From: Escherichia coli
Lineage (GTDB): Bacteria; Pseudomonadota; Gammaproteobacteria; Enterobacterales; Enterobacteriaceae
Direction: 5' to 3' (one strand)
Length of the DNA: 64,000 nt
NCBI RefSeq assembly: GCF_001677475.2
Contig: NZ_CP015229.1
This document shows positions 29,254 to 56,000 of this stretch, piece by piece (position 1 is the stretch's first letter; each line of letters opens with the position of its first letter). The notes below the pieces were generated by a model, which worked only from the letters and a program-made list of their open reading frames with translations, was not told the DNA's origin and made no database searches. The position numbers were made by a program, and so were the translations under genes.

Positions 29254-29360
29254 GCCTGATGCGCTACGCTTATCAGGCCTACATAACTCCTGCAATATTT
29301 TGGATTTGCATGAGTTGTAGGCCGGATAAGGCGTTCACGCCGCATCCGGCATGAACCACG
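29254..29360. repeat. BIME: two REP units in opposite orientation
   Basis: gcctgatgcgctacgcttatcaggcctac (29254..29282) and gtaggccggataaggcgttcacgccgcatccggca (29326..29360). Confidence 0.8.
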
Positions 29361-30744: not shown

Positions 30745-30821
<77 letters not shown>

Positions 30822-30854
30822 ATTAAAATTTGATGAAGTAAAGCAGTACGGTGA

Positions 30855-30931
<77 letters not shown>

Positions 30932-30965
30932 ATCAAAATTTGATGAAGTAAAAGCAGTACGGTGA

Positions 30966-31042
<77 letters not shown>

Positions 31043-32601: not shown

Positions 32602-33933
32602 GTGGTAAAGGAACGTAAAACCGAACTGGTCGAGGGATTCCGCCATTCGGTTCCCTATATCAATACCCACCGGGGAAAAACGTTTGTCATCATGCTCGGC
32701 GGTGAAGCCATTGAGCATGAGAATTTCTCCAGTATCGTTAATGATATCGGGTTGCTGCACAGCCTCGGCATCCGTCTGGTGGTGGTCTATGGCGCACGTC
32801 CGCAGATCGACGCAAATCTGGCCGCGCATCACCACGAACCGCTGTATCACAAGAATATACGTGTGACCGACGCCAAAACACTGGAACTGGTGAAGCAGGC
32901 TGCGGGAACATTGCAACTGGATATTACTGCTCGCCTGTCGATGAGTCTCAATAACACGCCGCTGCAGGGCGCGCATATCAACGTCGTCAGTGGCAATTTT
33001 ATTATTGCCCAGCCGCTGGGCGTCGATGACGGCGTGGATTACTGCCATAGCGGGCGTATCCGGCGGATTGATGAAGACGCGATCCATCGTCAACTGGACA
33101 ACGGTGCAATAGTGCTAATGGGGCCGGTCGCTGTTTCAGTCACTGGCGAGAGCTTTAATCTGACCTCGGAAGAGATTGCCACTCAACTGGCCATCAAACT
33201 GAAAGCTGAAAAGATGATTGGTTTTTGCTCTTCCCAGGGCGTCACTAATGACGACGGTGATATTGTCTCCGAACTTTTCCCTAACGAAGCGCAAGCACGG
33301 GTAGAAGCCCAGGAAGAGAAAGGCGATTACAACTCCGGTACGGTGCGCTTTTTGCGTGGCGCAGTGAAAGCCTGCCGCAGCGGCGTGCGTCGCTGTCATT
33401 TAATCAGTTATCAGGAAGATGGCTCGCTGTTGCAAGAGTTGTTCTCACGCGACGGTATCGGTACGCAGATTGTGATGGAAAGCGCCGAGCAGATTCGTCG
33501 CGCAACAATCAACGATATTGGCGGTATTCTGGAGTTGATTCGCCCGCTGGAGCAGCAAGGTATTCTGGTGCGCCGTTCTCGCGAGCAGCTGGAGATGGAA
33601 ATCGACAAATTCACCATTATTCAGCGCGATAACACGACTATTGCCTGCGCCGCGCTCTATCCGTTCCCGGAAGAGAAGATTGGGGAAATGGCCTGTGTGG
33701 CAGTTCACCCGGATTACCGCAGTTCATCACGGGGCGAGGTTCTGCTGGAACGCATTGCCGCTCAGGCGAAGCAGAGCGGCTTAAGCAAATTATTTGTGCT
33801 GACCACGCGCAGTATTCACTGGTTCCAGGAACGTGGATTTACCCCAGTGGATATTGATTTACTGCCCGAGAGCAAAAAGCAGTTGTACAACTACCAGCGT
33901 AAATCCAAAGTGTTGATGGCGGATTTGGGGTAA
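32602..33933 (+). CDS. argA: N-acetylglutamate synthase, 443 aa; GTG start
   Basis: ORF 32536..33933; start at GTG 32602 after agagg RBS giving [13 protein letters not shown]; kinase-like + GNAT domains. Confidence 0.92.
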
Positions 33934-33945
33934 GCGATGAAAATC

Positions 33946-33986
33946 GCCGGATGCGACATGCGTAACACTCGTGCGTCGCATCCGGC
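33946..33986. repeat. REP unit between convergent argA and recD
   Basis: gccggatgcgacatgcgtaacactcgtgcgtcgcatccggc. Confidence 0.7.
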
Positions 33987-33994
33987 AATTACGT

Positions 33995-35821
33995 TTATCC
34001 CCGTGAACTAAACAACGCCGCCAGACCGCTGCGCCGCTCGGTGCGCGTGGCAATTGCCGCACTTAAAATGCGCTCATCGGCATACAGCGACAGACGGCGA
34101 CGCGCGCGGGTCACCGCAGTGTAAACCAGCTCTCGTGTTACTACTGGCGTGCGTTGGCTCGGTAAAATCAACGCCGCATGGTCGAACTCCGATCCCTGCG
34201 ATTTATGTACCGTCATCGCCCACGTAGTTTCGTGCTCTGGCAAGCGACTCGGTTGCACAGACTTAATATTGCCGTCCGGCATCGCAAACCAGACGCGCGT
34301 CCCCTGCCCGCGATCCAGCGCAATACCGATATCGCCATTAAACAACCCAAGCGCGCTGTCATTACGGGCAATCATCACCGGTCGGCCTTCGTACCAACGA
34401 GAGTGCAGATGACGATGAATTTTGCGCTTCTGTTGCATAAACTGCTCAATTCGCTCATTCAGTCCAGCCACGCCAAACGGCCCTTCCCGCAGGGCGCACA
34501 AAAGCTGGTACTCATTGAACGCCTGAATGATTAAATCCGGCTCGGCACGCGCTTGCAGCAGATCCAGATAACGTCCATAACCCGCAAGAGCTTCCTCAAG
34601 CATCGCAATATAATCTTCGCCGCTCTGTAAAAGCCGTTTTTCGATATCAGTAAAATCCTGCTGAAAAACGGTTTTCACTGCCGTTTTATCACCACGGTTG
34701 ATCGCCGCAGCTAACTGACCAATGCCAGAATCGCTGCCGAAACGATAGCTTTTTTGCAGCAGGCAGAGACTGTCGCGCAAAGATGCCGCTTCTGTGCCAG
34801 TTCCTGCCGGAACGTGAGTTCCCGTCAGGCGGCTTAGCTGCCCGGCACGCTCGGCGGTAAAGCCGGCATTGGCATAAGCGCAGATATCGCCCAGCACAGC
34901 CCCAGCCTCAACCGAGGCCAGTTGATCACGATCGCCGAGAAAGATCACTCGCGCATGATCGGGCAAGGCGTCGATCAGTCTCGACATCATAGGCAGATCG
35001 ATCATTGACGCTTCATCTACCACCAGCACATCAAGATGCAGCGGGTTACCGGCATGATGACGTAAACGCTGGCTACCCGGCTGCGCACCCAGCAATCGGT
35101 GCAAAGTGCTGGCATCTTCCGGAATGCGTTTCTTTTGTTCATCGGTCAGCGGTAACTGGCGCAAAGCCTTGCCGAGAGATTCGGTTAAGCGCGCGGCAGC
35201 TTTACCCGTTGGTGCAGCCAGACGGATACGGCAGCGTTCGCCGTCTGCCATTTGAATTAACGCTGCCAGCAACTTCGCTACGGTGGTCGTTTTACCGGTG
35301 CCAGGGCCGCCGGAAATCACCGAGATCCGCCGCGTCAGCGCCACTGCCGCCGCAACTTTTTGCCAGTTAATTTCATCGCTTACTGGAAAAAGTTTGTCCA
35401 GGGTTTGCGCCAGTAGAGCTTCATCAACCTCAATGGCATGATTCACTTCGTTGAAAAAGCGTGCCACTGTGCGCTCGTTACACCACATGCGATTCAAATA
35501 AAGACGATCACCACAGAGGATCATCGGCGTTGGTTCATCTCCCCGGCTGACCGCTTGTGAAGCCAGCAAGCATTCTTCCCAATTTTGTAGCTCACCGATT
35601 TCACTGACGCAGGTTGCTAACAGCGGATGTGACTCCTCGTTATTTTCCAGTCGTGAGAGCGGTAAACAGACATGCCCTTCCCCGGCGTCGTGGCTTAACA
35701 GGGCTGCCGCGAGGGTGACGGCAGGATGTTCATCTCCCGCCACGGTCAGGGCAAATTGCACATCCAGCGGGCGTAGCTGTTTGTGCTCCACAGCTTCCAG
35801 TAATTGCTTTTGCAATTTCAT
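33995..35821 (-). CDS. recD: Exodeoxyribonuclease V alpha subunit, 608 aa
   Basis: ORF 33995..35821; Walker [11 protein letters not shown]; SF1 helicase. Confidence 0.94.
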
Positions 35822-38800
35822 TACGCCTCCTCCAAGGTCATACCGGCAAACATCTCATCCATCAGGTCAATCAACCCGGCGTTGGGTCGGGTTGTGTAAA
35901 TCCCCTGTTGCGGATGTTCTTTATCAACGCCACGCAGGAACAGATAGATAACGCCGCCAAAGTGACGATCATAGTCGTAATCAGCAATGCGATGGCGCAG
36001 ATAACGATGCAGCGCCAGGGTATAAAGCTGATATTGCAGATCATAGCGGTGTGCCTGCATCGCTGCTGCCATAGCCTGTTGGGTGTAAGCCGAACTGTCT
36101 TCACCCAGCCAGTTGGATTTATAGTCGAGCAGGTAATAACGCCCTTCGTGGCGGAATACCAGGTCGATAAAGCCTTTTAACATGCCGCGTACCTGCATGA
36201 ACTCCAGCGGCGGGCAGCCAGCGGATAGCGGGTCAAACTGGCGAATTAGTGCATCAAGCTGGCTGGCGATGAGCGGTTCGCTAATCGGCAGGTAAAACTC
36301 CATCTCCACCTGTTTATCGCGGTCGGAAAGCTGACTCAGGCTAACACCCGTTTCATTGAGATGTGCCTGGAGGACAGCCGTGATCCACTCGGTCAACACC
36401 GGTTCCCACTGCGATTCAAAGCCGCCGAGTTCCAGTTTTTCCTGTACCCAGTTCGGGTCAACCGGCTGGGTAAAATCGAGGTCTTCAAACAAACTGTGCA
36501 AGAATGTCCCCGGTGACGCACCGCGCGGGAACTGATGCGGTGTTAACGTCGGTTCTTCAACGACGCTGACCACGCCTGCGGCATCAACATCCAGCCGTGG
36601 CATCAGATCCTGAGCGATACCGTGACCACGCTGCTGCAAACCGGAGTAGCTGGTGACACGCCAGTTATCGCCGGGCAATCGTTGTAGCGTCCTCGCATTC
36701 AGTTCTGCAGTTAAAACATCATTAACCTGCCAGGACTGGTTATCACCAGTTTGTGCCGTTTGCCAGGCAATATCATCATCGCATAACGCTTCAATACAGG
36801 TGCGAAGCCCTGCCGCATCTTGCGGTTCCCCTTTTTGCAGCAAACGCCCGAGCGCACTTTGGTGGACGTCGGTGTCACCTTTTTTATCGCCACGACGGCG
36901 CACCAGCGGTGCAACGCCGAGGCTGCAATGCCAAACCGAACGCGTCAGCGCCACGTAAAGCAAACGCAGATCTTCCGCCAGACGTTCGGCCTCCGCGAGA
37001 TCGACACTTTCTGGCGCAGCGTTAAGATCCAGAACAGCCTCAAACGAGTGGCGATCGTGATAAAACGCCTGATCCTGGACGCGGAAATTGGTAATAAATG
37101 GCAACCAGACCAGCGGATATTCCAGCCCTTTTGATTTATGGATCGTGACAATCTGCACCAGATGTTTATCACTTTCGAGGCGCATTTGTTGGCTGGAGGC
37201 ATTACTGTCTGGCTCGAGGATATGTTGCGATAACCAGCGTACCAGCGCATGTTCACTTTCCAGCTGCGTTCCGGCTTCTTGTAGCAGTTCGCTGATATGC
37301 AAGATATCGGTAAGACGCCGCTCACCGCCTGCCGTTGCCAGCAAGTTTTCAGCAATGTTACGCGCCGACATCAGCGCCCGCAGCATCGGCATAACGCCAC
37401 GTTTGCGCCAGATTTGCCGATAACCATCGAACTCTTCGACTACCGCATCCCACGCATGTTCGTCATTGTTCAGCGTTTCGATATCCAGCGCGTTCAGCCC
37501 CATCATTGACGTTGCCAGCGCACTACGCAGGGTGTTCTCACGTTCGGGCGTCATCACCGCCTGCAACAACCAAAGCATTTCCTGCGCTTCCAGAGTTTCA
37601 AAAACACTGTCGCGGTTCGAAAGGTAAACGGAAGGGATTTCCAGCAGCGTTAAGGCATCGCGCACCTGAGCGGCCTCCTGACGGCTGCGCACCAGCACGC
37701 TGATGTCCGAAGCACGCACCGGACGCGCGTCGTCGCCGTTCATCAGCAACGCTTCGCCCCGCTGTCCGGCTTGTAGCCAGTCGCGGATTTGCCCAGCACA
37801 TACCTGCGCCATGGTACTTTGATAGTCGCCAACGCCGCAGCTTTCGCCTTCCATCAGCCACATTTTCATCGCAGGCTGCGTTTCACCTTTAAATACAAAA
37901 CGTAACGCCTGATTTTTCCTAGCTGATTTCACTGGAATAAACGGTATTTCGCGAAACATGAACGCGTCATCAGTCTGGCTAAAAAGCTTGTTCACACTGT
38001 TCACCATTCCTGGTGCGGAACGCCAGTTGGTGTCTAAAGTGTAGTGGGCGTGAACTTCGCTACGCGCCTTCATATAAGTGAAGATATCCGCACCCCGGAA
38101 TGCATATATGGCCTGCTTCGGGTCGCCAATCAGCAACAATGCGGTTTCCGGCTGATGGTGCCAGATACGGCGAAAAATTCGGTACTGCTGGGGGTCGGTA
38201 TCCTGAAATTCATCGATCATTGCCACCGGGAATCGCGTACGGATCGCCGCTGCCAACACCTCGCCGCTTTCGCTACGCAGCGCGGAATCGAGCCGACTTA
38301 ACATGTCATCAAAACCCAATTCGCCACGGCGGCGTTTTTCACGCGCTACTGTTTCGCGGATCTCAGCCAATGCGCGGGTGATCACCAGATCGCGGATCGA
38401 CAATGGTTCTGCAAGCAGTTGATCGATCGCATCAAACAGTGGATGTCGCGGGGTTTCCCCCCCGGCCTTCGTGCGATCTTCTAAGAAACGCTGGGAGAAT
38501 TTTTCCAGCGACTCCGGTAACTGATAACTGTTGGTCTCTTCTTCTGCCCAGGCGCTGATCTTCTCGATCCATTTAGCCTGATTGCTACGGTTAAACTTGC
38601 GTCGATCAATACCAGAAGATTCGATCAGCGCATCCAGTTCACCCACTGCGTCGCGCCACTGCTGTTTTACGGCGTCGATACGCGCCACAATTTTCGCGTG
38701 GCGGGAAGCCAGCGTTTCATCATCGGGCGGCGGTGCTTTGATAACCGGTGCTTCGCCTTGCAGATAACGATTAATATCGCGCAGCAACGCCTGCGGCCCT

Positions 38801-39363
38801 TTCCAGGTTTCAAAGACCACCTGGGCAATTTCACGCGGCAGCGGGTAGCAGTGGCGACGCCAGAAATCGGCGCAGGCCTGGTAGCGTAGCAGAGACTCAT
38901 CTTCAATCAGCTGCTGCTCAAACAGCATGCCGGATTCAAAGGCATTCAGGTTGAGCATGCGCTGGCAAAAACCGTGAATAGTAAAGACTGCCGCTTCATC
39001 CATCTGCCGTTCGGCTAACAACAACCACTGCGCGGCTTGCGCTTTATCGTCGATCTCTTCCAGCAGGCGTTTGTACAGTGGATTGTCGGTGGTTTCACGC
39101 AGACAGGCGATGCGCAACTCGTGGATATTGCTACGGATACGACCGCGCAATTCTGCCGTGGCAGCCTCGGTAAAGGTGACCACCAGCAGTTCTTCAACGG
39201 TCAGCGGGCGGGGAAAGGCGGCAGAACCGCCTAGTCCAAGTAACAGGCGCAAATAGAGCGCCGCAATCGTAAAGGTTTTGCCTGTGCCGGCAGAGGCTTC
39301 AATCAGGCGCTCGCCCTGTAAGGGCAAGCGCAAAGGATCTAGTGTCTCGGCGACATCACTCAT
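35821..39363 (-). CDS. recB: Exodeoxyribonuclease V beta subunit, 1180 aa
   Basis: ORF 35821..39372; start at [11 protein letters not shown] (39363); Walker [11 protein letters not shown]; 1-nt overlap with recD start. Confidence 0.94.
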
Positions 39364-42244
39364 TCTTTTCACTCATCAGGGGCATTGTTTGCTGCAACGC
39401 GCTGACGTTCTCCCACACTTTCCAGCCTTCAGGATGCACATATTCGGCTTTCCCGTTCTGGCTGCCGGAAATCTGCGACAGAATAGCCATGCCTTGCGGC
39501 TCGACCACCGCCTGATGGAAGAAATCAGCAAGTTTTTGCGGCGTCAGCAGTTTTATCTGGGCCACGATTTTATCACGCGAATCGAAGCGCATATTGCCGC
39601 GATCGAAATCTTTACTTAACTTCGATGCTTCTTCGCCGAGCGTTTGCGGTGCCTGCAGCATCTGGGTTATTACCGCCTGCTGGATTTGCGCAAACTCTTC
39701 TGGCTTCATCGCCCGCAATTTTGCCTCTGCGGTTGGGAAAAACGCCTTGTAACGCTCCCACAAGAATGAAGGCTGTTTATCATTGCTTTGCAAAAGGAAG
39801 CCCATGCCCCACTGACGCCCCACGCTCATTGGAAACGCAAACACGGCATAGCCCAATTGTTCTTCGGTACGCAACTGATTGTAGAACCACGGCTGTACGA
39901 TCTGCCCCAACAGAGAGCTATAGGCTGAGCTGGTGTATTCATCGTAGCCAGTCGGTACAAATACCGCTGCCAGTGCGGAGTCGGTACTGTTACCGGCTTT
40001 TTCAAAGATGACGGATTGTTTTTTATCGACCACGACATCTTTGTTACGACACCACTCCGAACCATCAGCGCCCAACTGTTTTTGCACATCGCGTGCCAGC
40101 GTTGTTGCCTGGGCTTCGGTCATGTTGCCAATAACCATAAACTCTGGTCGAGCCCCTGATTTTAAGGCGTCGCGATAGGCCAGCACCTCTTTCAAAGTGA
40201 TTGAAGGCAAAATTTTGCGCCGTTCATCTCGCGAGAAGTACGGCACTTGCGAGAGCATCTGCGCGGGCATAATCGCCTGCTCGAACGCTTTGCCCTTTTC
40301 TGCGGAATCCATCATCTGGTTATACCAGGACTTCGCCTGCTCAAGCTGATCTTCCGTAGCGGTATAGCTAAAGTAGCCCTCCAGCAGAGCCTGGAACAGC
40401 TGCGGCAGGCGCTGGGTGTAACCATTGGCATTAACCATAAGGCCGTTGTTAGCATTGGTGGAAAAACTTATGCCACCAACCGACGCCTGGTTGCTTAACT
40501 GATCAAGCGCCAGTCCGGCAAGATAATCATTGAGCGCAAACATCACTTGATTGCGGGCGCTGTCCATGGCTTTCGGGTTACGCAAAATCAGGCTGACATC
40601 AGCTTTGGGTTCGCTGGAAAAATAACGGCTTGGCGCATACACCACACGCAGATTCGACTCATCAACAATCAGCTCTGGATGGTCATATTTCTTCTCTGAC
40701 TTAATCAGCGAGAAATCGTCAGGAATATAGGGGTTAAGCTCTGGCAAAGAGAGCGCAATGTCGGCGGCTTTTTTCTGCCAGTCAGCGAAAGTTTGTGCGC
40801 TAATTTTATCGACCTGATACGGCGCATCGACAAAGTAAGCCGTTTTGTTGTGCGGCTCTTTCGGGCTGATATACCAGATACGCGCATTCTGCGGCGTCAT
40901 CATCGCCAGGCGTTCTTTTACTGCTTTAGCGTCGTACCGATCGGCAATATTGACTGCATCCAGCGTATGCTCAACAGGAACGCGAATCATGGTATCTGCC
41001 AGCCATTCGACGTAATCCATATCACGGGTGATTGACGGATAACGAAAGTCGATATCCAGCACATTCGCCAGTTCATCGAAGTATTGTTTATCAATCCCTT
41101 TTTCGCGTAACAGATTGAGGTAGCTAAAAATGGCCGCCACAACCTGATCGCGATTCGCCAGACCTTTATCGGTTAAAGACGCAGAGATCGCTAATACGCC
41201 GCTGTTGCCGTTGACGATAGGATCGGAATTGGCGCTAATGCCCTCAACTAATCCCTGCTTTTGCAGCCAGTCAGAAAGTGTACCTGGGCTGCGATTACCG
41301 ATCAGATAGGTAATCAATTCATCCGTTTTACTACGGAACTTCGCTGAATTGTTATCGATGCGAAACTCAACGCGCAGAACTTTACGCGGCAGCGCCGGGA
41401 CGTAATGAATGATAATGCCCTTTTGCGCGTCGGTGACTACCGGCACGGTGATTTCCGGTTTTTTGCTCTCTTTGTTCGGCACGCGACCAAAGGTGTCCGC
41501 CGCCATTTTTGCCAACTCCGGCAGCGGTTTATTGCTGTAAATAACCGCCTTCATCAGATTGGCGGAATAGTACTTCTCGTGGAAATCTTTCAGCGCCTGC
41601 TGCACCGGATTTCCGGGTTTGTCGCTTAAAGTTTCGAGGTTACCACCAGAAAACTTTGAACCGGGGTGTGCCGGGTTAATGGTTTCTGCGCTGACCTGTG
41701 CCATGCGCATCCCGTCACGCGTACGCGCCATGGTTAATTCGGCATTCACTGCATTACGTTCACGTTCGGCGTATTTCTTGTCGAGCAAGGGTTCTGCAAT
41801 AGCGTCCGCCAGGCGGTCTACCGCACCGGGCAAGGCGTCGTTCTCAACTTCCAGATAGAAAGCCGTGCGATACGGTGCCGTGCTGGCATTGTGACTGCCG
41901 CCGTGCATTTTGAGATATTCGGCCAGACTGTCAGCCTGCGGGTACTTTTTCGACCCCATCAGACTCATATGTTCAAGGTAATGTGCCAGCCCCTGGTACG
42001 CCTCGGGATCTTCCAGCGACCCAACGGGCACTACCAGCGCCGAGAGCGATTTAACCGCCTGCGGATCAGAAACCAGCAAGACCACCATACCGTTATCCAG
42101 ACGTATAGCCTGATACTGGCGGTTATCTTTATCACTTTTACGGATGGTTTCCTGAATCGGCTGCCATCCCGTTTCTGCCTGACTTAAGGGTGCCCAAAGG
42201 GCAACAAACAACAATAATGCTTTGAACCAGGTGCTGCGGGGCAT
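39356..42244 (-). CDS. ptrA: Protease III (pitrilysin, M16 zinc metalloprotease), 962 aa
   Basis: ORF 39356..42244; signal peptide; inverted zinc-binding motif HYLEH; 8-nt overlap with recB start. Confidence 0.94.
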   Translation of the reverse strand: MPRSTWFKALLLFVALWAPLSQAETGWQPIQETIRKSDKDNRQYQAIRLDNGMVVLLVSDPQAVKSLSALVVPVGSLEDPEAYQGLAHYLEHMSLMGSKKYPQADSLAEYLKMHGGSHNASTAPYRTAFYLEVENDALPGAVDRLADAIAEPLLDKKYAERERNAVNAELTMARTRDGMRMAQVSAETINPAHPGSKFSGGNLETLSDKPGNPVQQALKDFHEKYYSANLMKAVIYSNKPLPELAKMAADTFGRVPNKESKKPEITVPVVTDAQKGIIIHYVPALPRKVLRVEFRIDNNSAKFRSKTDELITYLIGNRSPGTLSDWLQKQGLVEGISANSDPIVNGNSGVLAISASLTDKGLANRDQVVAAIFSYLNLLREKGIDKQYFDELANVLDIDFRYPSITRDMDYVEWLADTMIRVPVEHTLDAVNIADRYDAKAVKERLAMMTPQNARIWYISPKEPHNKTAYFVDAPYQVDKISAQTFADWQKKAADIALSLPELNPYIPDDFSLIKSEKKYDHPELIVDESNLRVVYAPSRYFSSEPKADVSLILRNPKAMDSARNQVMFALNDYLAGLALDQLSNQASVGGISFSTNANNGLMVNANGYTQRLPQLFQALLEGYFSYTATEDQLEQAKSWYNQMMDSAEKGKAFEQAIMPAQMLSQVPYFSRDERRKILPSITLKEVLAYRDALKSGARPEFMVIGNMTEAQATTLARDVQKQLGADGSEWCRNKDVVVDKKQSVIFEKAGNSTDSALAAVFVPTGYDEYTSSAYSSLLGQIVQPWFYNQLRTEEQLGYAVFAFPMSVGRQWGMGFLLQSNDKQPSFLWERYKAFFPTAEAKLRAMKPEEFAQIQQAVITQMLQAPQTLGEEASKLSKDFDRGNMRFDSRDKIVAQIKLLTPQKLADFFHQAVVEPQGMAILSQISGSQNGKAEYVHPEGWKVWENVSALQQTMPLMSEKNE

Positions 42245-42419
42245 TCACGGACCTCATAATCAACTTTATTTTCTGGCCAGATTCAACAGGTTAACGCAAA
42301 TCATCTGCCAGAATTTAATCTTGTGCTGCACGAGTCAGCCTATGTTTATATAACCATCAGTCCGTGACTGGTGCGCATCATAAAGTAAGCGGACAGATTG
42401 CGCAATTTTTATACAGCGC

Positions 42420-45400
42420 TCATGACTGATTAAAGCGAAACAGCGGTAACAGGAAACGTTGCGACTGTTCAACGATGGCCTCCATTGTCTCTGGTGTTAA
42501 TTGCCGCCAGAGCCTTTGATACCAGATATCATCACCTTCGCCACGCACCATCATGTTGCCTTCGTAAGCCTGAAGGAATTTCGTACGGGCTTTTTGCAAC
42601 GTGGAATCGTCATCCAGCATGGCATCGTTTTGCGCGTCATAACAGGTTTTTAGCCACGCGCCGCCACTTTCAGGTAACACCAGCAATGGCGCGGACATCC
42701 CTTCACGATACCCCTCAATCAGTTGTGAGAGGTAATGCAAAGCCTGTTCGGCTGCAAGCGGCGGAAAACGCCACTCGCCGTCTTTGCGTAGAAAAAGGCG
42801 ACTTTCACCATTACCACCGCTGGCACAGTAGACAAGGTGTTCCAGCCAAAGTTGCATTCCCTGCGCCACACTTAATAAAGAGGGACGCCAGCGCAACAAG
42901 CCATCCGGCTGCACCTGCGGCAACCAGCCAGTTATCTGCACACCGTTGCAAGCGAGATCAATTTCCATACTCTGCCCCGGCTGGCGACAGGCAATGACTC
43001 TGTCGGCAAGCTGCTGCATCTCCTGGCACTGTGTTTCCCAGAAAATTTCACCAAAAGCGCCATACGGTAAATCCCCTGCCGCCCGGAAGCGGCGGAACAA
43101 GCGTTCGGCATCATCCTGCTCAACCAGTGCATTCAATAACTGCTGATTGATTTGATAACGGCTAAGTCCTTCCAGAATAAATGGCTCGGTGTCGGGGATT
43201 TCGCTGTCTTCAGTACGGAAGTTCACCTGCAAACGCATCTGGAAGAACGCCCGCACCGGATGTGCCCAGAATCGTTGTAGCGTTTCCAGCGGCACGGTTT
43301 CCGGTAAGGTAAACGGCAGCGGCTGAACAAATTCAGAATGTGCTTTACCAGCCTGGCTGGCCGCAGGTAGCCATTCACGAGCATAGCTTTGTCGTTCGCC
43401 TGGCTGGTAGTTTTGTGGATCAAACGGCATCCGGGTATGGAGGCAAGTAAGATGCGCTTTTACTCTTGCCTCGCTTTCATCACAGTTGAGCGCTTCATCG
43501 CCCGGTAGATAATGACTTTGCCCGATGTAGTCGATCAGTTCCTGCACCAGTACCGACGGGAAACGTTCACTGTTATCCTGAATGGAACGCCCGATATAGC
43601 TGATATAGAGTTTTTGCTGCGCGGAAATTAACGCTTCCAGGAACAGATAGCGGTCATCATCGCGACGGCTACGGTCGCCACGCTTCGGTTTCTGGCTCAT
43701 CAGGTCAAAGCCCAATGGCGCAAGCTGACGTGGATAAACGCCGTCGTTCATTCCCAGCAGGCAAACCACTTTGAACGGAATTGAACGCATTGGCATCAGA
43801 GTACAAATGTTAACCGGTCCGGCGAGAAAACGCTGGCTGATACGTTCCTGATCCAGACGCTGTGCCAGTTCATCACGCAATAGTGACAGCGGCACCGCGT
43901 CGCCATACTGCGCACCTAAACCTTCGGCGATAATCGCCTGCCATTGTTGTTCGATCAGCGTCATCGCCGCTTCGGTTTCCGCATCCGGCAGGAAGAAGGC
44001 GTTGAGCATATCGCGACAAACCGGCAACCACTCTTCCAGCGGACGCTCCTGTGCCAGCCCGCGACGCCAGATGTTTAGCTGCATTAGCAGTGAAGCCAGA
44101 TGCCCCACCAGTTCTGCAATTAAGCCGCTCGATTCATCATAAGGTAGAACCGATTGCCACTCGCCCTGCGCGCTCTCCATCGCGTAGCCCAGCAACATAC
44201 GCGTCAGGCCAAATCGCCAGGTGTGTTGTCCGGTGGCGGGGAGTTCCAGCTCGCGAACGTTGTCGTCATCTATGCCCCAACGAATGCCGGACTCGTTGAC
44301 CCACTGGCGTAAATAACGCAGCCCTTCTTCGGTGATGTCAAACCGCGCCGCCAGCACCGGCACATCCAGTAATGCCAGCACATCCTCTGACACAAAGCGA
44401 CTGTCAGGCAGTGATAACAGGCTGATAAACGCTTCCAGTACCGGATGCGACTGCCGCGCCCGACGGTCGGAAATGGCGTAAGGCAGGTAACGATCCGCAG
44501 GTGCGCTACCAAACACAGCCTGAATAAACGGACTGTAGCTGTCGATATCAGCCACCATCACGATGATGTCGCGCGGAGTAAGTGTCGGGTCTTCCTCCAG
44601 CATCGCCAGCAGGCGATCGTGTAAAACTTCAACTTCACGCTGCGGGCTATGGCAAACGTGGAAGGTGATACTGCTATCCAGTGGATCAAGCGGGCGTTTG
44701 TTATCGCTACGGGAAAACTCTTCGATGTTCACACCAGCAACGGCGCGGTTTTCCAGTTCCAGAATGTCAGACTGAATGTTATGCAGCAGGTTATCTGGCG
44801 TGACATCGACAAAGGCGTCCAGCTCCTGGCTGCTCTCCAGGTCAGAAAGGAGATAAATGTAGTCGCGCCCAAGCTTACCCCATGAGGCCAGCAGCGGGTT
44901 GCCGACATCCTGTTCACCATCGCTGTTAAAGAGCTGCCCGGCATTTTCGCTATCGCGAAATAGCGGTAATTCGCGATCTTCAAAACTGTGTCGGCGCTGG
45001 CGAGTCAGCAGTTTCGCCAGATAAGCAGGATCTTTAATGTCGCCCCAGTAATAACGGCAGGGGTTGGTAAACAGGAGATGGATTTCAATATGTTTACCCA
45101 GCGCCTGGAGCGCCTGGAGATAAACAGGCGGTAACGCGGAAATACCGCATATAAAGACGCGCGAAGGTAACCCCGGCGGGCAGGTCGTCGCGGACTCCAG
45201 CGTTTCGATAAAGCGCTGATAGAGATTGGCGCGGTGCCAACGCGGTTGTCCGAGTTCATGGGTATATTCCACCAGCGCCTTCCACAACGGCGCTTGCCAG
45301 GCCTGTGCCTCTCCCAGCCCTTCAACCAAATGTCCTGTTTCCCACTGTGCCAGCCAGTCCGGACGATAGACCAGATACTGGTCAAACAGGTCCGCCGCTT

Positions 45401-45788
45401 TTGAGGAAAGCTGGAACAGTTTTCGCTTGTCGCTATCATCAGTCAGATAATGCCGCAGCAGGGTAAAGTCTTCGCGATCCAGCAATTGCGGCAGCAGAGT
45501 CATCAGTTTCCAGCTCATGCTCTGTTTGTTAAAGGCGCTCTCTTTGGGGATCTCCGGTAACACCCGGACGAACATATCCCAGATAAAGCTCGCAGGCAGC
45601 GGAAAATCAATGTTTGCCGCAATACCAAACTTTTGCGACAGGGTCATTTGCAGCCACTGTGCCATACCGGTACTTTGCACCAGAATCATCTCTGGTTCGA
45701 AAGGATCGTCCAGCCGTTCGCGTTCGACAATAAACTCCATCAACGCTTCCAGCACGTCCAGACGATTGGAATGGTAGACCCTTAACAT
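42420..45788 (-). CDS. recC: Exodeoxyribonuclease V gamma subunit, 1122 aa
   Basis: ORF 42420..45788; matches E. coli RecC length/N-terminus MLRVYHSNRLDVL. Confidence 0.94.
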   Translation of the reverse strand: MLRVYHSNRLDVLEALMEFIVERERLDDPFEPEMILVQSTGMAQWLQMTLSQKFGIAANIDFPLPASFIWDMFVRVLPEIPKESAFNKQSMSWKLMTLLPQLLDREDFTLLRHYLTDDSDKRKLFQLSSKAADLFDQYLVYRPDWLAQWETGHLVEGLGEAQAWQAPLWKALVEYTHELGQPRWHRANLYQRFIETLESATTCPPGLPSRVFICGISALPPVYLQALQALGKHIEIHLLFTNPCRYYWGDIKDPAYLAKLLTRQRRHSFEDRELPLFRDSENAGQLFNSDGEQDVGNPLLASWGKLGRDYIYLLSDLESSQELDAFVDVTPDNLLHNIQSDILELENRAVAGVNIEEFSRSDNKRPLDPLDSSITFHVCHSPQREVEVLHDRLLAMLEEDPTLTPRDIIVMVADIDSYSPFIQAVFGSAPADRYLPYAISDRRARQSHPVLEAFISLLSLPDSRFVSEDVLALLDVPVLAARFDITEEGLRYLRQWVNESGIRWGIDDDNVRELELPATGQHTWRFGLTRMLLGYAMESAQGEWQSVLPYDESSGLIAELVGHLASLLMQLNIWRRGLAQERPLEEWLPVCRDMLNAFFLPDAETEAAMTLIEQQWQAIIAEGLGAQYGDAVPLSLLRDELAQRLDQERISQRFLAGPVNICTLMPMRSIPFKVVCLLGMNDGVYPRQLAPLGFDLMSQKPKRGDRSRRDDDRYLFLEALISAQQKLYISYIGRSIQDNSERFPSVLVQELIDYIGQSHYLPGDEALNCDESEARVKAHLTCLHTRMPFDPQNYQPGERQSYAREWLPAASQAGKAHSEFVQPLPFTLPETVPLETLQRFWAHPVRAFFQMRLQVNFRTEDSEIPDTEPFILEGLSRYQINQQLLNALVEQDDAERLFRRFRAAGDLPYGAFGEIFWETQCQEMQQLADRVIACRQPGQSMEIDLACNGVQITGWLPQVQPDGLLRWRPSLLSVAQGMQLWLEHLVYCASGGNGESRLFLRKDGEWRFPPLAAEQALHYLSQLIEGYREGMSAPLLVLPESGGAWLKTCYDAQNDAMLDDDSTLQKARTKFLQAYEGNMMVRGEGDDIWYQRLWRQLTPETMEAIVEQSQRFLLPLFRFNQS

Positions 45789-45800
45789 AGCGGCTCCTGA

Positions 45801-46124
45801 CTACTGACGATTCGGGCAATGCAGGCGGGTCATCTCGCCTTCTCTGCCCCCGGGTGAAACTAGCGTAACGCTGATGCTGACACATCCCGCCTGCGATGTC
45901 TGCATTCGGTTGACCTGCCAGTTGGCAGGTGGCGAAATCGCGCGCAGTTGCGTTTGCTGCCAACTATGCCGCCAGAGCTGTTGGTACTGGTTTCTGCTGG
46001 CAAGACTGTTCATTAATGTTCGCTGGAAACCCGATAACGCAGTGACAATCATCACCATCAACACCATCGCCAACATTACCTCCGGCAGGCTAAAGCCTTG
46101 TTGATTCTTCAGGGAAGCTGACAT
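45801..46124 (-). CDS. ppdC: Prepilin peptidase-dependent pseudopilin-like protein C, 107 aa
   Basis: ORF 45801..46211; start at [16 protein letters not shown] (46124); type IV prepilin leader/cleavage motif G-F-x-x-x-E. Confidence 0.88.
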
Positions 46125-46516
46125 AACGCCCCCTCTTTCAGCGGACAAAAATCGCTCCAGCCGCGTGGCGAAAAAACAATGTTTCCATCGATGACTTCGC
46201 CTGTTCGCCACAACGAAACGCCTTCATAACCGGCAATCAATAAGGCTTCATTATCTGCCAGTAAACGCAAACAAACCCGGGCATCGGTTCCAGCGTACTG
46301 CGAGCACTGAACTGCGGGCTGCGTCTGCCAGGAGTGCATTTTTCCCCACGCCAGCGCCGACTGAACGATGGCCTGGCGGCGCAATGACTGACTTTCCATG
46401 CTCACGCGAGAGGCAAAACTGCGATCCTGTTGGCTCATTCCTTGTAATAGCAAGCTACCCAAAACCAGCAGCATCAGGACCAGAGCCAGTGACGAAACAC
46501 CCTTTTCGCGGTTCAC
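46109..46516 (-). CDS. ygdB: DUF2509 protein in the pseudopilin operon, 135 aa
   Basis: ORF 46109..46516; N-terminal hydrophobic segment; overlaps ppdC start and ppdB stop. Confidence 0.85.
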
Positions 46517-47076
46517 AGGTTGAATCCTGTCACGCTATAGCTGGCATCCACCACGGTTTGCGGATCAGCCTTGCTGGCAGCGTGCATATTAACCGTCAAC
46601 ACCGGCGAGAAACCGCTGACATCCTCTTGGGTAACCTGAAAAGTGTCGATAATGATGGCATCCGGATTAGTGACTTTATCCCAGCCCTTACCTTCACAGG
46701 ATGTCGCACCGCGTAGCGTTTCCAGCACATGCGCTTTCAGACGAAATCCAATCTGGTCGGACTCTTTTACCGGTTCGCGATCCCAGATACCGTTACTGTT
46801 CGCATCCCACTGCACAATGACACAGTCACCCTGTCCGACAATTTCCAGCCCTTCGCCGGTACAGCTGCCATGACAATAACCCGCCCTCTGGAGATGCTTC
46901 GCAACGGTAAATACCCGCAGCCAGATTTCATCTTCCAGCGCCAGCTTACGGGTGCTCGTTAAACTGTCACGCTGTAACGCAGGCAGAAAGCGTGCAGCCC
47001 CCAGCAACAATACGCTACTGATCGCCATAGCAATCAACACTTCCAGCAGAGAAAAACCTTGCTCTTTTACAGGCAT
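46513..47076 (-). CDS. ppdB: Prepilin peptidase-dependent pseudopilin-like protein B, 187 aa
   Basis: ORF 46513..47316; start at [18 protein letters not shown] (47076); prepilin motif. Confidence 0.88.
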
Positions 47077-47537
47077 CCTTCTGTTTCTCCTTGCTGACAA
47101 AGCCGGAGTCTTCCCCACGGCGAAACCACCAGCCACCACTCGCCCGTTGAGTTTTTGAAGCGAATATGCCCGGCCCATGCGGTATTGCGCAGGCCAAAGA
47201 AAGCAAGCGAAGGTGTCAGGTCGCTCATTTCGACTTCGGGCCAGCGTGGCACAAAGACCAATGGTGAACTGCCATGACAGGTATTCGCCCCAGCAACGGA
47301 ACTCACAAGGCACCATAACGTCCCCTCCCTGATAACACTGATACTGTGGTCGCGGTTATGCCAGTTGGCATCTTCACGTAAATAGAGCAAATAGTCCCGC
47401 GCCTGGCAGGCGGTTTGCCAAAGCCGTTGCGACTGCTGCCAGTATTGCCAGCCATAGAGCCCACTTGCGCTTAGCATGACCAAAATCAGCATCGCAACCA
47501 GCGTTTCAATCAGCGTATAACCACGTTGTGTTTTCAT
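47067..47537 (-). CDS. ppdA: Prepilin peptidase-dependent pseudopilin-like protein A, 156 aa
   Basis: ORF 47067..47537; N-terminus [19 protein letters not shown] (prepilin motif); overlaps ppdB start. Confidence 0.88.
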
Positions 47538-47721
47538 GCCGGCAGTATGGAGCGAGGAGAAAAAAAGACGAGGGCCAGTTTCTATTTCTTCGGCGCATCT
47601 TCCGGACTATTTACGCCGTTGCAGGACGTTGCAAAATTTCGGGAAGGTGTCTCGAAGAATTTAACGGAGGGTAAAAAAAACCGACGCACACTGGCGTCGG
47701 CTCTGGCAGGATGTTTCGTAA

Positions 47722-48516
47722 TTAGATAGCTACCGGCGCTTTAATGCCCGGATGCGGATCGTAGCCTTCAATCTCAAAGTCTTCGAAACGATAGTCGAAG
47801 ATGGATTTGGGTTTACGTTTGATAATCAACTTCGGCAGCGGACGCGGTTCGCGGCTTAATTGCAGATGAGTTTGATCCATATGATTGCTGTACAGGTGCG
47901 TATCGCCACCGGTCCAGACAAAATCACCCACATCCAGATCGCACTGCTGCGCCATCATATGCACCAGTAACGCGTAGCTGGCAATATTAAACGGCAGGCC
48001 GAGGAAGACGTCACAGGAGCGCTGATAAAGCTGACAAGAGAGTTTGCCGTCTGCCACATAGAACTGGAAGAATGCATGGCACGGTGCCAGCGCCATTTTA
48101 TCCAGTTCGCCTACGTTCCACGCTGAAACAATAATGCGGCGGGAATCCGGGTCGTTTTTCAGCTGGTTCAGTACCGTAGTGATCTGGTCAATATGACGAC
48201 CATCTGGCGTTGGCCAGGCGCGCCACTGTTTACCATACACTGGCCCGAGGTCGCCGTTTTCATCGGCCCATTCGTCCCAGATGGTGACATTGTTTTCGTG
48301 TAGATAAGCAATGTTAGTGTCGCCCTGCAGGAACCACAGCAGTTCGTGGATGATGGAACGCAGATGGCAACGTTTAGTTGTCACCAGCGGGAATCCATCC
48401 TGCAAGTTAAAACGCATCTGATGACCAAAAATGGAAAGCGTTCCGGTTCCGGTACGGTCGTTTTTCTGTGTGCCTTCGTCGAGCACTTTTTGCATCAGTT
48501 CTAAATACTGTTTCAT
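47722..48516 (-). CDS. thyA: Thymidylate synthase, 264 aa
   Basis: ORF 47722..48516; catalytic Cys motif [13 protein letters not shown]; matches E. coli ThyA. Confidence 0.96.
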
Positions 48517-48522
48517 GGTTCC

Positions 48523-49398
48523 TCAGGAAACGTGTTGCTGTGGGCTGCGACGATATGCCCAGACCATCATGATCACACCCGCGACAATCATCGGGATGGA
48601 AAGAATTTGCCCCATGCTGATGTACTGCACCCAGGCACCGGTAAACTGCGCGTCGGGCTGGCGGAAAAACTCAACAATGATGCGAAACGCGCCGTAACCA
48701 ATCAGGAACAAGCCTGAGACAGCTCCCATTGGGCGCGGTTTACGAATATACAGGTTGAGGATAATAAACAGCACCACACCTTCCAGCAGCAGTTCGTAAA
48801 GCTGTGATGGGTGGCGCGGCAGCACACCGTAAGTGTCGAAAATGGATTGCCACTGCGGGTTGGTTTGCAGCAGCAAAATATCTTCTGTACGGGAGCCAGG
48901 GAACAGCATGGCAAACGGGAAGTTCGGGTCAACGCGGCCCCACAATTCACCGTTAATAAAGTTGCCCAGACGCCCGGCACCAAGACCAAACGGAATGAGT
49001 GGTGCGATAAAATCAGAGACCTGGAAGAAGGAACGTTTAGTACGGCGGGCGAAGATAATCATCACCACGATAACGCCAATCAGGCCGCCGTGGAAGGACA
49101 TGCCGCCGTCCCAGACACGGAACAGATACAGCGGATCGGCCATAAACTGCGGGAAATTGTAGAACAGAACATAACCAATACGTCCACCGAGGAAGACGCC
49201 GAGGAAGCCCGCATAGAGTAAGTTTTCAACTTCATTTTTGGTCCAGCCGCTGCCCGGACGATTCGCCCGACGTGTTGCCAGCCACATTGCAAAAATGAAA
49301 CCCACCAGATACATCAGGCCGTACCAGTGAAGCGCCACGGGTCCTATTGAGAAAATGACCGGATCAAACTCCGGAAAATGCAGATAGCTACTGGTCAT
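48523..49398 (-). CDS. lgt: Prolipoprotein diacylglyceryl transferase, 291 aa
   Basis: ORF 48523..49398; multi-TM; Lgt signature; immediately upstream of thyA. Confidence 0.94.
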
Positions 49399-49548
49399 CT
49401 GTCACCACAAGTTCTTGTTATTTCGCTGAAAGAGAACAGCGATTGAAATGCGCGCCGCAGGTTTCAGGCGCTCCAAAGGTGCGAATAATAGCACAAGGGG
49501 ACCAGGCTGGTTGCCGGATACCGTTAAAAGATATGTATATGATCCGCG

Positions 49549-51795: not shown

Positions 51796-51807
51796 AATTG
51801 GCGTGAC

Positions 51808-52338
51808 TTAACCTCTTTTACGTCGATAAGCAGATGCGTTTTGTGGTTTTGGCGTATTTTCCTGCAGTGACATCACCACACTCGCGAACTCTTTCATTAC
51901 CCTACGGTAGACATCACGTTTAAATGACACCACCTGTCTGACCGGATACCAGTAACTTACCCATCGCCAGCCGTCAAACTCTGGTGTACTGCTGGTTTGC
52001 ATATTGATTTCTGCATCGCCGCTCACCAGCTGCAAGAGAAACCATTTTTGTTTTTGGCCGATACAAACCGGCTTCGTGTCCCAACGCACCAAACGTTTCG
52101 GTAATTTGTAGCGCAACCAGTTACGCGTTGAAGCAAGGATTCGAACGTCTTTGCGGCTTAATCCTACTTCTTCAAACAATTCACGGTACATCGCCTGCTC
52201 TGCGGATTCTCCGGGGTTGATTCCGCCTTGCGGAAATTGCCAGGAGTGCTGACCAAATCGCCGGGCCCACATTACCTGCCCCTGGCGATTACAAATCACG
52301 ATACCTACGTTTGGGCGGTAGCCATCGTCATCAATCAC
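51808..52338 (-). CDS. rppH: RNA pyrophosphohydrolase (Nudix), 176 aa
   Basis: ORF 51808..52338; Nudix box [22 protein letters not shown]. Confidence 0.94.
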
Positions 52339-52479
52339 CGGACTACCTCAAAATAAAGCTTTATATACGAATGATTGTTTCATACTCCAGGAAGACGGTA
52401 AACCACTCTCTGCAGGGCATTACACACTAATAACAATTGAATAACTCACAGTTATGTGCAGAGTTATAAACAGAAGAAG

Positions 52480-52850
52480 GGGTGGATAGCCGTTTTTATT
52501 CACCTTTTCTGTGGATAGAGTTGTGAAGAACTACGGAATTACTACGGGAAAACCCGGAGCATTCTGAATAAGCCCGATATAGACATTTTAAAATATTCAT
52601 TATCAGTCAATGCATTACATGTAATTTGAGTAATAAAAAAGAGTAATTCGTGACCCAGGTCACACCTCTCATTTACGGGTTGGCGAAAGATCAACCAATG
52701 CGGTATTTATCCACAGAATGTGCCACTAAGTTAAGCACTGAGCCACTAAAAACTGGAGTTTCGTCGCACGTCAAGGCTGTAAATGGAAACAGTAGTGGAG
52801 GTTTTTCACAGTTATCCCAGCTTTCTGTGGATAACATGGTGTAAGATCCT
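52480..52850. promoter_or_regulatory. DnaA-box cluster in rppH-mutH intergenic region, consistent with DARS2 (DnaA-reactivating sequence 2); boundaries approximate
   Basis: Perfect DnaA boxes ttatccaca at 52708..52716 (fwd) and tgtggataa at 52826..52834 (rev); 1-mismatch box tgtggatag 52510..52518; weaker box-like 9-mers nearby; DARS2 is reported to lie between ygpD(rppH) and mutH. Confidence 0.6.
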
Positions 52851-53022
52851 GTTTATTTTCAGTGACCAGATTTGGAAAACCCGTTGCAGTGTTGCGCAAC
52901 TCGATTACCGACAATCTAAAAAGCAATATAAATCAGAGAATTGAACAACGCATGTGGAAAAAGTTACACTGCGAATATTCGGCACAGAAATGCTGTTTGT
53001 TTTTTAACCAAGGTATCGTGAC

Positions 53023-53712
53023 ATGTCCCAACCTCGCCCACTGCTCTCTCCTCCCGAAACTGAAGAACAATTGTTAGCGCAAGCACAACAACTTTCTGGT
53101 TATACATTGGGAGAACTGGCGGCACTTGCTGGGCTGGTGACGCCGGAGAATTTAAAACGCGATAAGGGCTGGATTGGCGTGTTACTGGAGATCTGGCTAG
53201 GTGCCAGCGCAGGGAGTAAACCTGAGCAAGATTTTGCTGCTCTGGGCGTGGAACTTAAAACTATCCCTGTGGATAGTCTTGGTCGTCCGCTGGAAACAAC
53301 ATTCGTTTGTGTTGCCCCGTTAACGGGTAATAGCGGGGTGACCTGGGAAACCAGCCACGTGCGCCACAAGCTCAAACGCGTGCTGTGGATACCGGTTGAA
53401 GGCGAGCGCTGCATCCCGCTGGCGCAGCGTCGCGTAGGATCACCGTTGCTGTGGAGCCCGAATGAAGAGGAAGACCGGCAGCTACGCGAAGACTGGGAAG
53501 AATTAATGGATATGATTGTTCTCGGTCAGGTTGAGCGGATTACCGCTCGTCACGGGGAATATTTACAGATACGACCGAAAGCAGCGAATGCGAAAGCGCT
53601 TACCGAAGCCATTGGTGCCCGGGGCGAACGGATTCTGACGCTGCCACGCGGCTTTTATTTGAAGAAGAATTTCACCAGTGCACTACTGGCCCGTCATTTT
53701 CTGATCCAGTAG
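53023..53712 (+). CDS. mutH: DNA mismatch repair endonuclease MutH, 229 aa
   Basis: ORF 53023..53712; matches E. coli MutH N-terminus [20 protein letters not shown]. Confidence 0.95.
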
Positions 53713-53780
53713 CCATCGCTTTGACCTGCCGCTTTCCGGGCATATAATTACCGCTTCATTTTTTTGGCAGGGCTTTTTAG

Positions 53781-54494: not shown

Positions 54495-54631
54495 TACTCC
54501 GTACGCTCTCCTGCGGGAGGGCGTACTCACTCCTGTTACCCTCACAGTTTAAGATTTTCCTGCTTTCAAGATATATAACGTCGGTTTATAAACAGACTAT
54601 TATCATAGGTGGGCCAAATGAGGATAACCGG

Positions 54632-55998: not shown

Positions 55999-56000
55999 GA

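Follow-up and report, generated by a model that had tools for sequence, protein, structure and literature searches.

Why does the gene of a secreted protease stand among the genes of a DNA-repair enzyme, and what does its position mean for the expression of that enzyme? We addressed this question in a window of 64,000 nucleotides (i.e., the whole stretch of DNA analyzed) from Escherichia coli (GCF_001677475.2, contig NZ_CP015229.1). The initial annotation described the RecBCD subunit genes as interrupted by ptrA, a known arrangement that pairs functions oddly. Both statements are borne out: the order recC, ptrA, recB, recD on the minus strand was recovered with equivalog matches for all four genes, and the same arrangement is found in the K-12 annotation, in thousands of genomes, and in the literature (PMC12342828, PMC8339205). 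The cluster had been placed at positions 35821 to 45788; this interval does hold recB, ptrA, and recC, whereas recD lies immediately outside it (33995 to 35821). We conclude, with a probability of about 0.9, that the cluster represents the core chromosomal recC / ptrA-recB-recD locus of E. coli, intact and organized as in K-12. Published work already covers its organization, its regulation, and its evolutionary oddity, and the copy in this strain is intact and ordinary.

Gene content and integrity of the locus

Table 1. Genes, junctions, and candidate regulatory features of the locus (positions within the window)
Feature	Position	Strand	Description	Basis
recC	42420..45788	minus	ATG..TGA, 1122 aa, exodeoxyribonuclease V gamma subunit	ORF listing
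recC-ptrA spacer	42245..42419	minus	Non-coding, 175 nt	Direct sequence reading
Candidate ptrA-recB-recD promoter	42405-42400 (-35); 42382-42377 (-10)	minus	-35 TTGCGC, 17-nt spacer, -10 TATGAT	Permissive hexamer scan
Counterpart of the K-12 36-nt Hfq-binding region	42259..42294	minus	ptrA 5'UTR	Alignment to K-12
ptrA	39356..42244	minus	ATG..TGA, 962 aa, pitrilysin / protease III	ORF listing
ptrA/recB overlap	39356..39363	minus	8 nt, ATGAGTGA; recB start codon and ptrA stop codon	
recB	35821..39363	minus	ATG..TAA, 1180 aa, exodeoxyribonuclease V beta subunit, helicase-nuclease	
recB/recD overlap	35821	minus	1 nt, TAATG; recB stop and recD start	
recD	33995..35821	minus	ATG..TAA, 608 aa, exodeoxyribonuclease V alpha subunit	

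The identities of the four genes are secure. RecC, RecB, and RecD matched their NCBIfam equivalogs end-to-end (NF008289, 2128.8 bits, cut-off 1470; NF008128, 2334.7 bits, cut-off 1697; and NF008127, 1137.4 bits, cut-off 671, respectively), and PtrA matched the pitrilysin equivalog NF011681 (1854.7 bits; cut-off 765). In a phmmer search against the PDB, residues 1-1180 of RecB corresponded to residues 1-1180 of 1w36_B (2642 bits), and Protease III (1q2l_A) was aligned to PtrA residues 24-962. The exact RecB protein recurs in public assemblies with unchanged neighbours, and the identical ptrA gene in such assemblies carries the Pfam domains Peptidase_M16, M16_M, and M16_C. The zinc motif HYLEH of PtrA (residues 88-92) fits the inverted HxxEH motif of the M16 domain. 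Its N terminus resembles a Sec signal peptide (MPRSTWFKALLLFVALWAPLSQA, followed by ETG), and the crystallised chain begins at residue 24. PtrA looks like a periplasmic zinc metalloprotease of family M16A with a putative signal peptide at residues 1-23. The assembled RecBCD enzyme would be expected to have ATP-dependent helicase-nuclease activity and to recognize Chi, given protein identities of at least 98% to K-12.

None of the four genes contained internal stops or frameshifts. The start of recC lies 12 nt after the stop of ppdC, and recD is the final gene of the operon, followed by the convergent argA. The flanks (mltA, three tRNA(Met) genes, amiC, and argA on one side; ppdC, ygdB, ppdB, ppdA, thyA, lgt, and ptsP on the other) are those of K-12. 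G+C content was about 50 to 51% for ptrA and about 53 to 56% for the rec genes; in composition, ptrA resembles an ordinary gene of E. coli, and no signal usable as evidence of recent horizontal transfer was obtained. No RNA families were found inside the cluster in a search with Rfam. The locus block was present in 5422 of 5426 complete E. coli genomes (at least 80% coverage).

In K-12 MG1655, recC (b2822; 2959060-2962428) and ptrA, recB, and recD (b2821-b2819; 2955996-2958884, 2952461-2956003, and 2950635-2952461, respectively) have the same order, strand, and lengths as here. The two overlaps, with identical junction sequences, and the 175-nt length of the spacer are also shared, so that the overlap coordinates agree with the reference. 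The differences are point substitutions only (per-gene nucleotide identity, 97.2 to 98.9%), which amount to 21 amino acid changes in RecB, 2 in RecC, 3 in PtrA, and 4 in RecD. The spacer differs at 5 positions, of which 3 fall within the Hfq-binding region.

Overlapping gene junctions

The overlaps of 8 nt (ptrA/recB) and 1 nt (recB/recD) given in the initial annotation proved exact. The 3' end of ptrA reads GAA AAG AAT GAG TGA and includes the recB ATG; the ribosome-binding region of recB is weak and is contained in the final ptrA codons. At the recB/recD junction the sequence is GGAGGAGGCG TAATG, and a strong Shine-Dalgarno sequence, GGAGGAGG, precedes the recD start.

Such overlaps could be annotation artefacts of a mis-called start or a frameshift, and the longest mechanical recB ORF does open at GTG 39372 rather than at ATG 39363, the start used in RefSeq and K-12. 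The overlap with ptrA persists with either start, however. ATG 39363 also aligns with the recB start of 100 other loci, where recB likewise overlaps an upstream stop, and RecB translated from this ATG equals the full-length crystal structure chain. The next in-frame start would remove the conserved N-terminal LDPLxLPL, which further argues against a start-calling artefact. With gene lengths equal to those of K-12 and reading frames free of frameshifts and internal stops, we regard an artefactual origin of the overlaps as ruled out for practical purposes.

The recC-ptrA spacer and transcription of the operon

In K-12, the locus comprises two transcription units, recC alone and a polycistronic ptrA-recB-recD (PMC12342828). 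The spacer between them carries, in this strain, a conserved sigma-70-like candidate promoter (Table 1). Its hexamers are identical to those of K-12, and both hexamers and their spacing are kept in Escherichia, Citrobacter, and several Enterobacter-like genomes. This spacer promoter is not universal: in one Enterobacter-like genome the recC-ptrA gap is only 17 nt. The spacer also contains a conserved GTCACGGACTGAT block and the ptrA 5'UTR, with a Shine-Dalgarno GAGG 7 nt before the ATG. The published sequence of the K-12 Hfq region (PMC12342828) was located in the window and aligned to K-12; its counterpart differs at 3 of 36 positions (TTAACCTGTTGAATCTGGCCAGAAAATAAAGTTGAT). In K-12, the distance from the promoter to the Hfq site downstream is 76 nt (PMC12342828), which fits the position of our candidate. 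As a separate and speculative observation, a loose sigma-E-like match, GGACTG..N..GCTGA, occurs in the spacer at 42363.

In published K-12 experiments, RecB translation is limited by Hfq, which binds to the 5'UTR of ptrA; Hfq CLASH peaks lie at the ptrA ribosome-binding site, and the recB ribosome-binding site lies inside ptrA (PMC12342828). Deletion of 36 nt from the ptrA 5'UTR halved recB mRNA and doubled RecB translation efficiency (PMC12342828). Overproduction of sigma-E induced transcripts of ptrA 10.7-fold, recB 4.5-fold, and recD 3.1-fold (PMC2731931); ptr, recB, and recD are not mentioned in the main text of Rhodius 2006 (PMC1312014), and PMC1193525 contains nothing specific about ptrA. 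Coupling of recB to ptrA is a suggestion in the literature (PMC12342828).

By extension from K-12, we infer that ptrA, recB, and recD are cotranscribed and coupled in this strain as well. A scan of positions 33800 to 46300 found no intrinsic terminator with a convincing T-tract between the genes, and terminator-like sites in this region were not in excess over chance. Ribosomes ending ptrA would reinitiate at the overlapping recB ATG, which is poorly supported by a Shine-Dalgarno sequence, and those ending recB would reinitiate at the recD ATG. Reinitiation at these two ATGs would keep the synthesis of RecB and RecD low, mutually proportioned, and bound to the ptrA message.

Distribution of ptrA upstream of recB

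We compared 120 recB loci sampled across Proteobacteria. The ptrA gene was directly upstream of recB in 27 loci, all from Enterobacterales (Enterobacteriaceae, Erwiniaceae, Yersiniaceae, Pectobacteriaceae, and Budviciaceae); translation of a 123-nt flank revealed ptrA-recB also in Edwardsiella (Hafniaceae), in addition to these 27. The ptrA-interrupted order was thus confined to Enterobacterales in the 120-locus sample. In 73 loci, recC was directly upstream of recB. Aeromonas caviae, Vibrio casei, Shewanella, Pseudomonas, Marinobacter, and Burkholderiales have the rec genes in the same order as here (recC-recB-recD). In these other Proteobacteria, there is no ptrA between recC and recB; recC is the overlap partner of recB, and recD is close behind recB or overlaps it.

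An overlap of the upstream stop with the recB start was common to both arrangements. It was present in 26 of the 27 ptrA-bearing loci (4 nt in 15 loci, 8 nt in 5, 1 nt in 5, and 20 nt in 1) and in at least 50 of the 73 recC-recB loci; an ATGA overlap occurred in 44 of these 73. E. albertii, E. coli, two Citrobacter genomes, and one MAG shared the ATGAnTGA form; in Pantoea and Erwinia, where the order is recC-ptrA-recB-recD, the overlaps are 4 nt long. The neighbour of recB (i.e., recC in most Proteobacteria and ptrA in Enterobacterales) usually ends across the recB start. This recurrence lends support to the proposal, already published, that translational coupling sets the synthesis of RecB.

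Two Erwiniaceae, Tatumella and Rosenbergiella, lack ptrA. Tatumella has the synteny seen here (ptsP-lgt-thyA-ppd genes-recC ... recB-recD-argA-amiC), a recC-recB gap of about 45 to 51 nt, and a RecB nearest to those of Pantoea and Erwinia (63 to 66% identity). Rosenbergiella has an ATGA overlap of recC and recB. Because Pantoea and Erwinia carry ptrA, its absence from these two genera is most simply explained by secondary loss; ptrA can evidently be lost again with the rec genes undisturbed. The reduced symbiont genomes (a Logan contig, Candidatus Steffania, and an Arsenophonus MAG) had rearranged or decayed recB neighbourhoods and were uninformative. A search for PtrA homologues was of no use for distribution, given that only Enterobacteriaceae at 83% identity or more were among the matches listed.

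Origin and meaning of the ptrA position

The position of ptrA has been explained in the literature as a lineage-specific secondary interruption of an ancestral recC-recB-recD operon; the arrangement is discussed in PMC12342828 and PMC8339205. Our comparative sample bears this explanation out, and the oddity of the pairing noted at the outset is real. On this account, the entry of ptrA into the operon would date to the common ancestor of Enterobacterales, with ptrA taking over the stop/start overlap of recC onto recB, and a secreted protease would have come to be paired with a DNA-repair enzyme by historical accident.

Alternatively, recB-recD might be driven mainly by a promoter of their own in the 3' part of ptrA, with the overlap incidental and ptrA functionally uncoupled from the rec genes. 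An RNAP-ChIP peak termed "putative recB promoter" lies a few hundred bp upstream of the recB GATC cluster (bioRxiv 10.1101/2025.01.06.631547), published genomic-SELEX peaks include one for a minor sigma factor within recB, and weak extended -10-like candidates (TGnTAAAAT near 39575-39567) lie some 200 nt before the recB ATG. The initial annotation had pointed to internal promoters within ptrA as worth looking for, but no conserved one was found in our scans or alignment. A consensus sigma-70 and terminator scan of 33800-46300 (12.5 kb) gave 3 sigma-70-like sites against 9.0 +/- 3.2 expected by chance, with none in the last 2.5 kb of ptrA and none near recB. Permissive hexamer and sigma-E-like scans inside ptrA yielded weak candidates only. 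Over the final 400 nt of ptrA, third codon positions showed no conserved stretch in an alignment of 16 Enterobacteriaceae. The effect of the 36-nt deletion, which acts from 3 kb upstream on both recB mRNA and RecB translation efficiency, is hard to reconcile with recB mRNA that mostly initiates inside ptrA, since the deletion halves that mRNA. We therefore consider a predominant internal promoter improbable; given the RNAP-ChIP peak, some recB-recD transcripts may have a start of their own, independent of ptrA.

The position of ptrA might instead be adaptive: with recB-recD behind an envelope protease gene under sigma-E and Hfq control, double-strand-break repair would be tied to envelope stress, and selection would keep the order. 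The order is indeed kept in six Enterobacterales families, nearly always with the recB overlap (26 of 27 loci), and both the sigma-E induction of all three genes (PMC2731931) and the action of Hfq at the ptrA 5'UTR (PMC12342828) accord with such a link. Against it, Tatumella and Rosenbergiella retain recC-recB-recD without ptrA in an otherwise identical neighbourhood, and Rosenbergiella again has the ATGA overlap; none of the sampled non-Enterobacterales has ptrA here. No function of PtrA in DNA repair is known (PMC12342828), the genes of an operon can keep their order without special selection, and the spacer promoter itself is not universal, given the 17-nt recC-ptrA gap of one Enterobacter-like genome. 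An adaptive position is accordingly unlikely in our judgment. A fuller version, in which the insertion was not neutral, is likewise unlikely: the Sec-exported, sigma-E/Hfq-controlled ptrA would have replaced recC as the coupling partner of recB and rewired RecB/RecD synthesis to envelope stress, possibly with translation of the ptrA-recB-recD mRNA at the membrane, and this rewiring would conserve both order and overlap. We thus retain the reading of a lineage-specific interruption. The comparative tally is a small addition to what is known of the locus, which otherwise belongs to the textbook picture of the E. coli chromosome.

Comparison with known coupled genes

The ptrA-recB junction resembles those of the trp operon genes and of galT-galK, which are cited for this locus in PMC12342828. 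In all of them, stop and start codons overlap or abut, and the downstream ribosome-binding site lies within the upstream coding sequence. Experiments have established coupling for trp and gal, whereas for ptrA-recB it is suggested by the anatomy. Unlike the trp and gal cistrons, ptrA and recB encode functionally unrelated products that act in different compartments.

Gene identities and junctions

Four long genes lie head to tail on the minus strand in the order recC-ptrA-recB-recD, according to the ORF listing and a reading of the three junctions. The initial annotation had assigned this cluster to 35821-45788, an interval that holds recB, ptrA, and recC, with recD just outside. NCBIfam equivalog models for RecD, RecB, pitrilysin, and RecC matched all four products end to end (scores of ~1.4 to 2.4 times the curated cutoffs). 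RecB aligned with the crystallized E. coli RecB (1w36_B) over residues 1 to 1180, and PtrA aligned with protease III (1q2l_A) from residue 24 onward. PtrA carries the zinc motif HYLEH at residues 88 to 92, and its N terminus resembles a signal peptide.

Positions of features in the window
Feature	Position	Strand	Basis or description
recC	42420-45788	-	ORF listing, direct junction reading
recC-ptrA spacer	42245-42419		Noncoding, 175 nt
Candidate spacer promoter	42405-42377		-35 TTGCGC, 17 nt, -10 TATGAT
GTCACGGACTGAT block	42350-42363	-	Just 3' of -10 hexamer
Hfq region	42294-42259		Counterpart of K-12 Hfq-binding stretch
ptrA	39356-42244	-	ORF listing, direct junction reading
recB	35821-39363	-	ORF listing, direct junction reading
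recD	33995-35821	-	ORF listing, direct junction reading
GATC cluster, recB	38351-38650		11 in 300 bp
GATC cluster, recD	34924-35000		7 in 80 bp
Chi sites in recD, recB, recC	35020, 39180, 45269	-	GCTGGTGG
Rfam matches	7516-7875, 26054-26259, 59463-59747, 30745-31039, 29275-29317		

The 3' end of ptrA reads GAA AAG AAT GAG TGA and contains the recB ATG (39363-39361), which bears out the proposed 8-nt overlap (ATGAGTGA). At the next junction (TAATG), the A at base 35821 both ends the recB TAA and begins the recD ATG, giving the 1-nt overlap also proposed in the initial annotation. Although the longest mechanical recB ORF starts at a GTG (39372) three codons upstream of the ATG annotated in RefSeq genomes and K-12, recB overlaps ptrA from either start. 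Comparison with K-12 detected no frameshifts or internal stops in the four genes; the overlaps are thus not removed by a frameshift or a miscalled start.

Distribution of ptrA upstream of recB

Published work treats ptrA among the rec genes as a lineage-specific insertion into an ancestral recC-recB-recD operon. To test this, we searched one-genome-per-species contigs with a degenerate DNA pattern matching the N terminus of RecB; the resulting 120 loci were sorted by tblastn hits to the window's proteins and by where the stop and start codons lay. ptrA immediately preceded recB in 27 loci, each from Enterobacterales (Escherichia, Citrobacter, Enterobacter, Kluyvera, Pluralibacter, Mangrovibacter, Pseudescherichia, and Superficieibacter; Pantoea and Erwinia; Yersinia and Serratia; Acerihabitans; Budvicia; and several MAGs). 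Translation of a short flank placed ptrA upstream of recB in Edwardsiella too. recC was directly upstream in 73 loci, among them Aeromonas, Shewanella, Pseudomonas, Marinobacter, Halomonas, and many Burkholderiales, and the flank was too short or the neighbor not recognizable in 20. Full-context look-ups found recC-recB-recD in Aeromonas caviae and Vibrio casei and recC-ptrA-recB-recD in Pantoea agglomerans and Erwinia amylovora; the latter order has been reported for S. marcescens (PMC8339205). The sample and these look-ups therefore identify ptrA between recC and recB as a shared derived character of Enterobacterales.

Within this order, a Tatumella locus (L005, 4581-11585) reads ptsP-lgt-thyA-ppd genes-recC-recB-recD-argA-amiC, an extended order shared with E. 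coli apart from the missing ptrA; its recC and recB are separated by ~45 to 51 nt. Two Rosenbergiella species (L060 and L090) also lack ptrA, and their recC and recB overlap by ATGA. Because the RecB proteins closest to that of Tatumella are from Pantoea and Erwinia, both of which have ptrA, the simplest reading is secondary loss within Erwiniaceae, and the absence of ptrA in Tatumella and Rosenbergiella is likely a secondary deletion. The rec genes can thus do without ptrA.

The conserved feature upstream of recB is the overlap. ATGA overlaps were present in 44 of the 73 recC-recB loci, and 6 overlapped by other lengths (1, 11, 13, or 20 nt); the remainder had short gaps. Overlap was observed in 26 of the 27 ptrA-recB loci: ATGA in 15, TAATG in 5, the 8-nt ATGAnTGA typical of Escherichia and Citrobacter in 5, and 20 nt in 1 that had lost the usual stop. 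According to these tallies, the inserted ptrA would have inherited the proposed coupling position.

Transcription and translation

In K-12, recC and a polycistronic ptrA-recB-recD form two transcription units, the ribosome-binding site of recB falls within ptrA, suggesting translational coupling, and Hfq cross-links close to the ptrA ribosome-binding site (PMC12342828). A 36-nt deletion in the ptrA 5' UTR halved recB mRNA and doubled RecB translation efficiency (PMC12342828); RecB output is therefore controlled from 3 kb upstream of recB. Sigma-E overproduction increased ptrA 10.7-fold, recB 4.5-fold, and recD 3.1-fold (PMC2731931).

The Hfq region of the window has three substitutions relative to K-12. 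The position of the candidate spacer promoter matches the published "76 nt upstream of the Hfq site" (PMC12342828), and its hexamers and spacing are kept in Escherichia, Citrobacter, and several Enterobacter-like genomes. The GTCACGGACTGAT block is conserved among Escherichia, Citrobacter, and two Enterobacter-like genomes; it may mark where transcription starts or belong to a sigma-E-type promoter (GGACTG ... GCTGA). recB has a weak Shine-Dalgarno-like sequence, which would fit low, coupled RecB synthesis; GGAGGAGG precedes the recD start, and reinitiation on recD after RecB synthesis may be efficient.

The recC-ptrA spacer is highly variable in length (100 to 180 nt in most Enterobacteriaceae). 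It is 17 nt in Enterobacter sp. BIGb0383 (L049), leaving no room for a spacer promoter, and ~1 kb in an uncultured Enterobacterales MAG (L037); transcriptional organization may therefore differ between genera.

An RNAP-ChIP peak has been called a putative recB promoter (bioRxiv 10.1101/2025.01.06.631547), and given this peak, a minor internal promoter is possible. A consensus scan of 12.5 kb detected 3 promoter-like sites (9.0 ± 3.2 expected), none in the 3'-terminal 2.5 kb of ptrA, and a permissive scan gave at most weak candidates ~200 nt upstream of recB. Alignment of 16 Enterobacteriaceae showed no conserved synonymous block in the final 400 nt of ptrA. A conserved internal recB promoter has no support from the sequence.

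Other sequence features

recB and recD hold the two GATC (Dam site) clusters with the highest density in the 64-kb window (average, ~1.2 per 300 bp), and both clusters were reported before for K-12 (bioRxiv 10.1101/2025.01.06.631547). At the recB position, GATC counts were 11 in E. coli, 7 in E. albertii, and ≤4 in other genera; this cluster looks specific to Escherichia. The window contains 12 Chi sites, all on the minus strand (~2 expected by chance), three of them within genes of the Chi-recognizing enzyme; the excess is the usual strand-biased Chi overrepresentation of E. coli. The Rfam scan of the window found no families inside the rec-ptrA cluster and matched CsrB, GcvB, OmrA, OmrB, ES036, and three tRNA genes elsewhere, the last predicted by K-12 synteny to be the metZWV initiator tRNAs.

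Comparison with K-12 and other E. coli genomes

The 9,968-nt interval was present in 5,422 of 5,426 complete E. coli genomes (≥80% coverage), where it was always annotated as recC, ptrA, recB, and recD. None of these 5,426 genomes matched a part of the window (1-25000, 35821-45788, and 46000-64000) at more than 98.6 to 98.8% identity, and the exact RecB protein was found in many draft assemblies. The window appears to derive from an Escherichia/Shigella lineage without a close complete genome in the collection.

Every gene has the same length as in K-12 MG1655, as does the 175-nt spacer, and the two junctions match base for base. The loci differ by point substitutions (97.2 to 98.9% nucleotide identity per gene), the great majority of them synonymous except in RecB, where 21 amino acids are changed (RecC, 2; PtrA, 3; RecD, 4). 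Ten of the 21 are in the C-terminal region (residues 877 to 1166). The excess in RecB may amount to normal polymorphism in a protein that phages target. The initial annotation was correct in both observing ptrA among the rec genes and calling it a known arrangement, one already described. This is the ordinary arrangement in E. coli; its regulation and evolutionary oddity are already known, and our comparative tally adds only detail.
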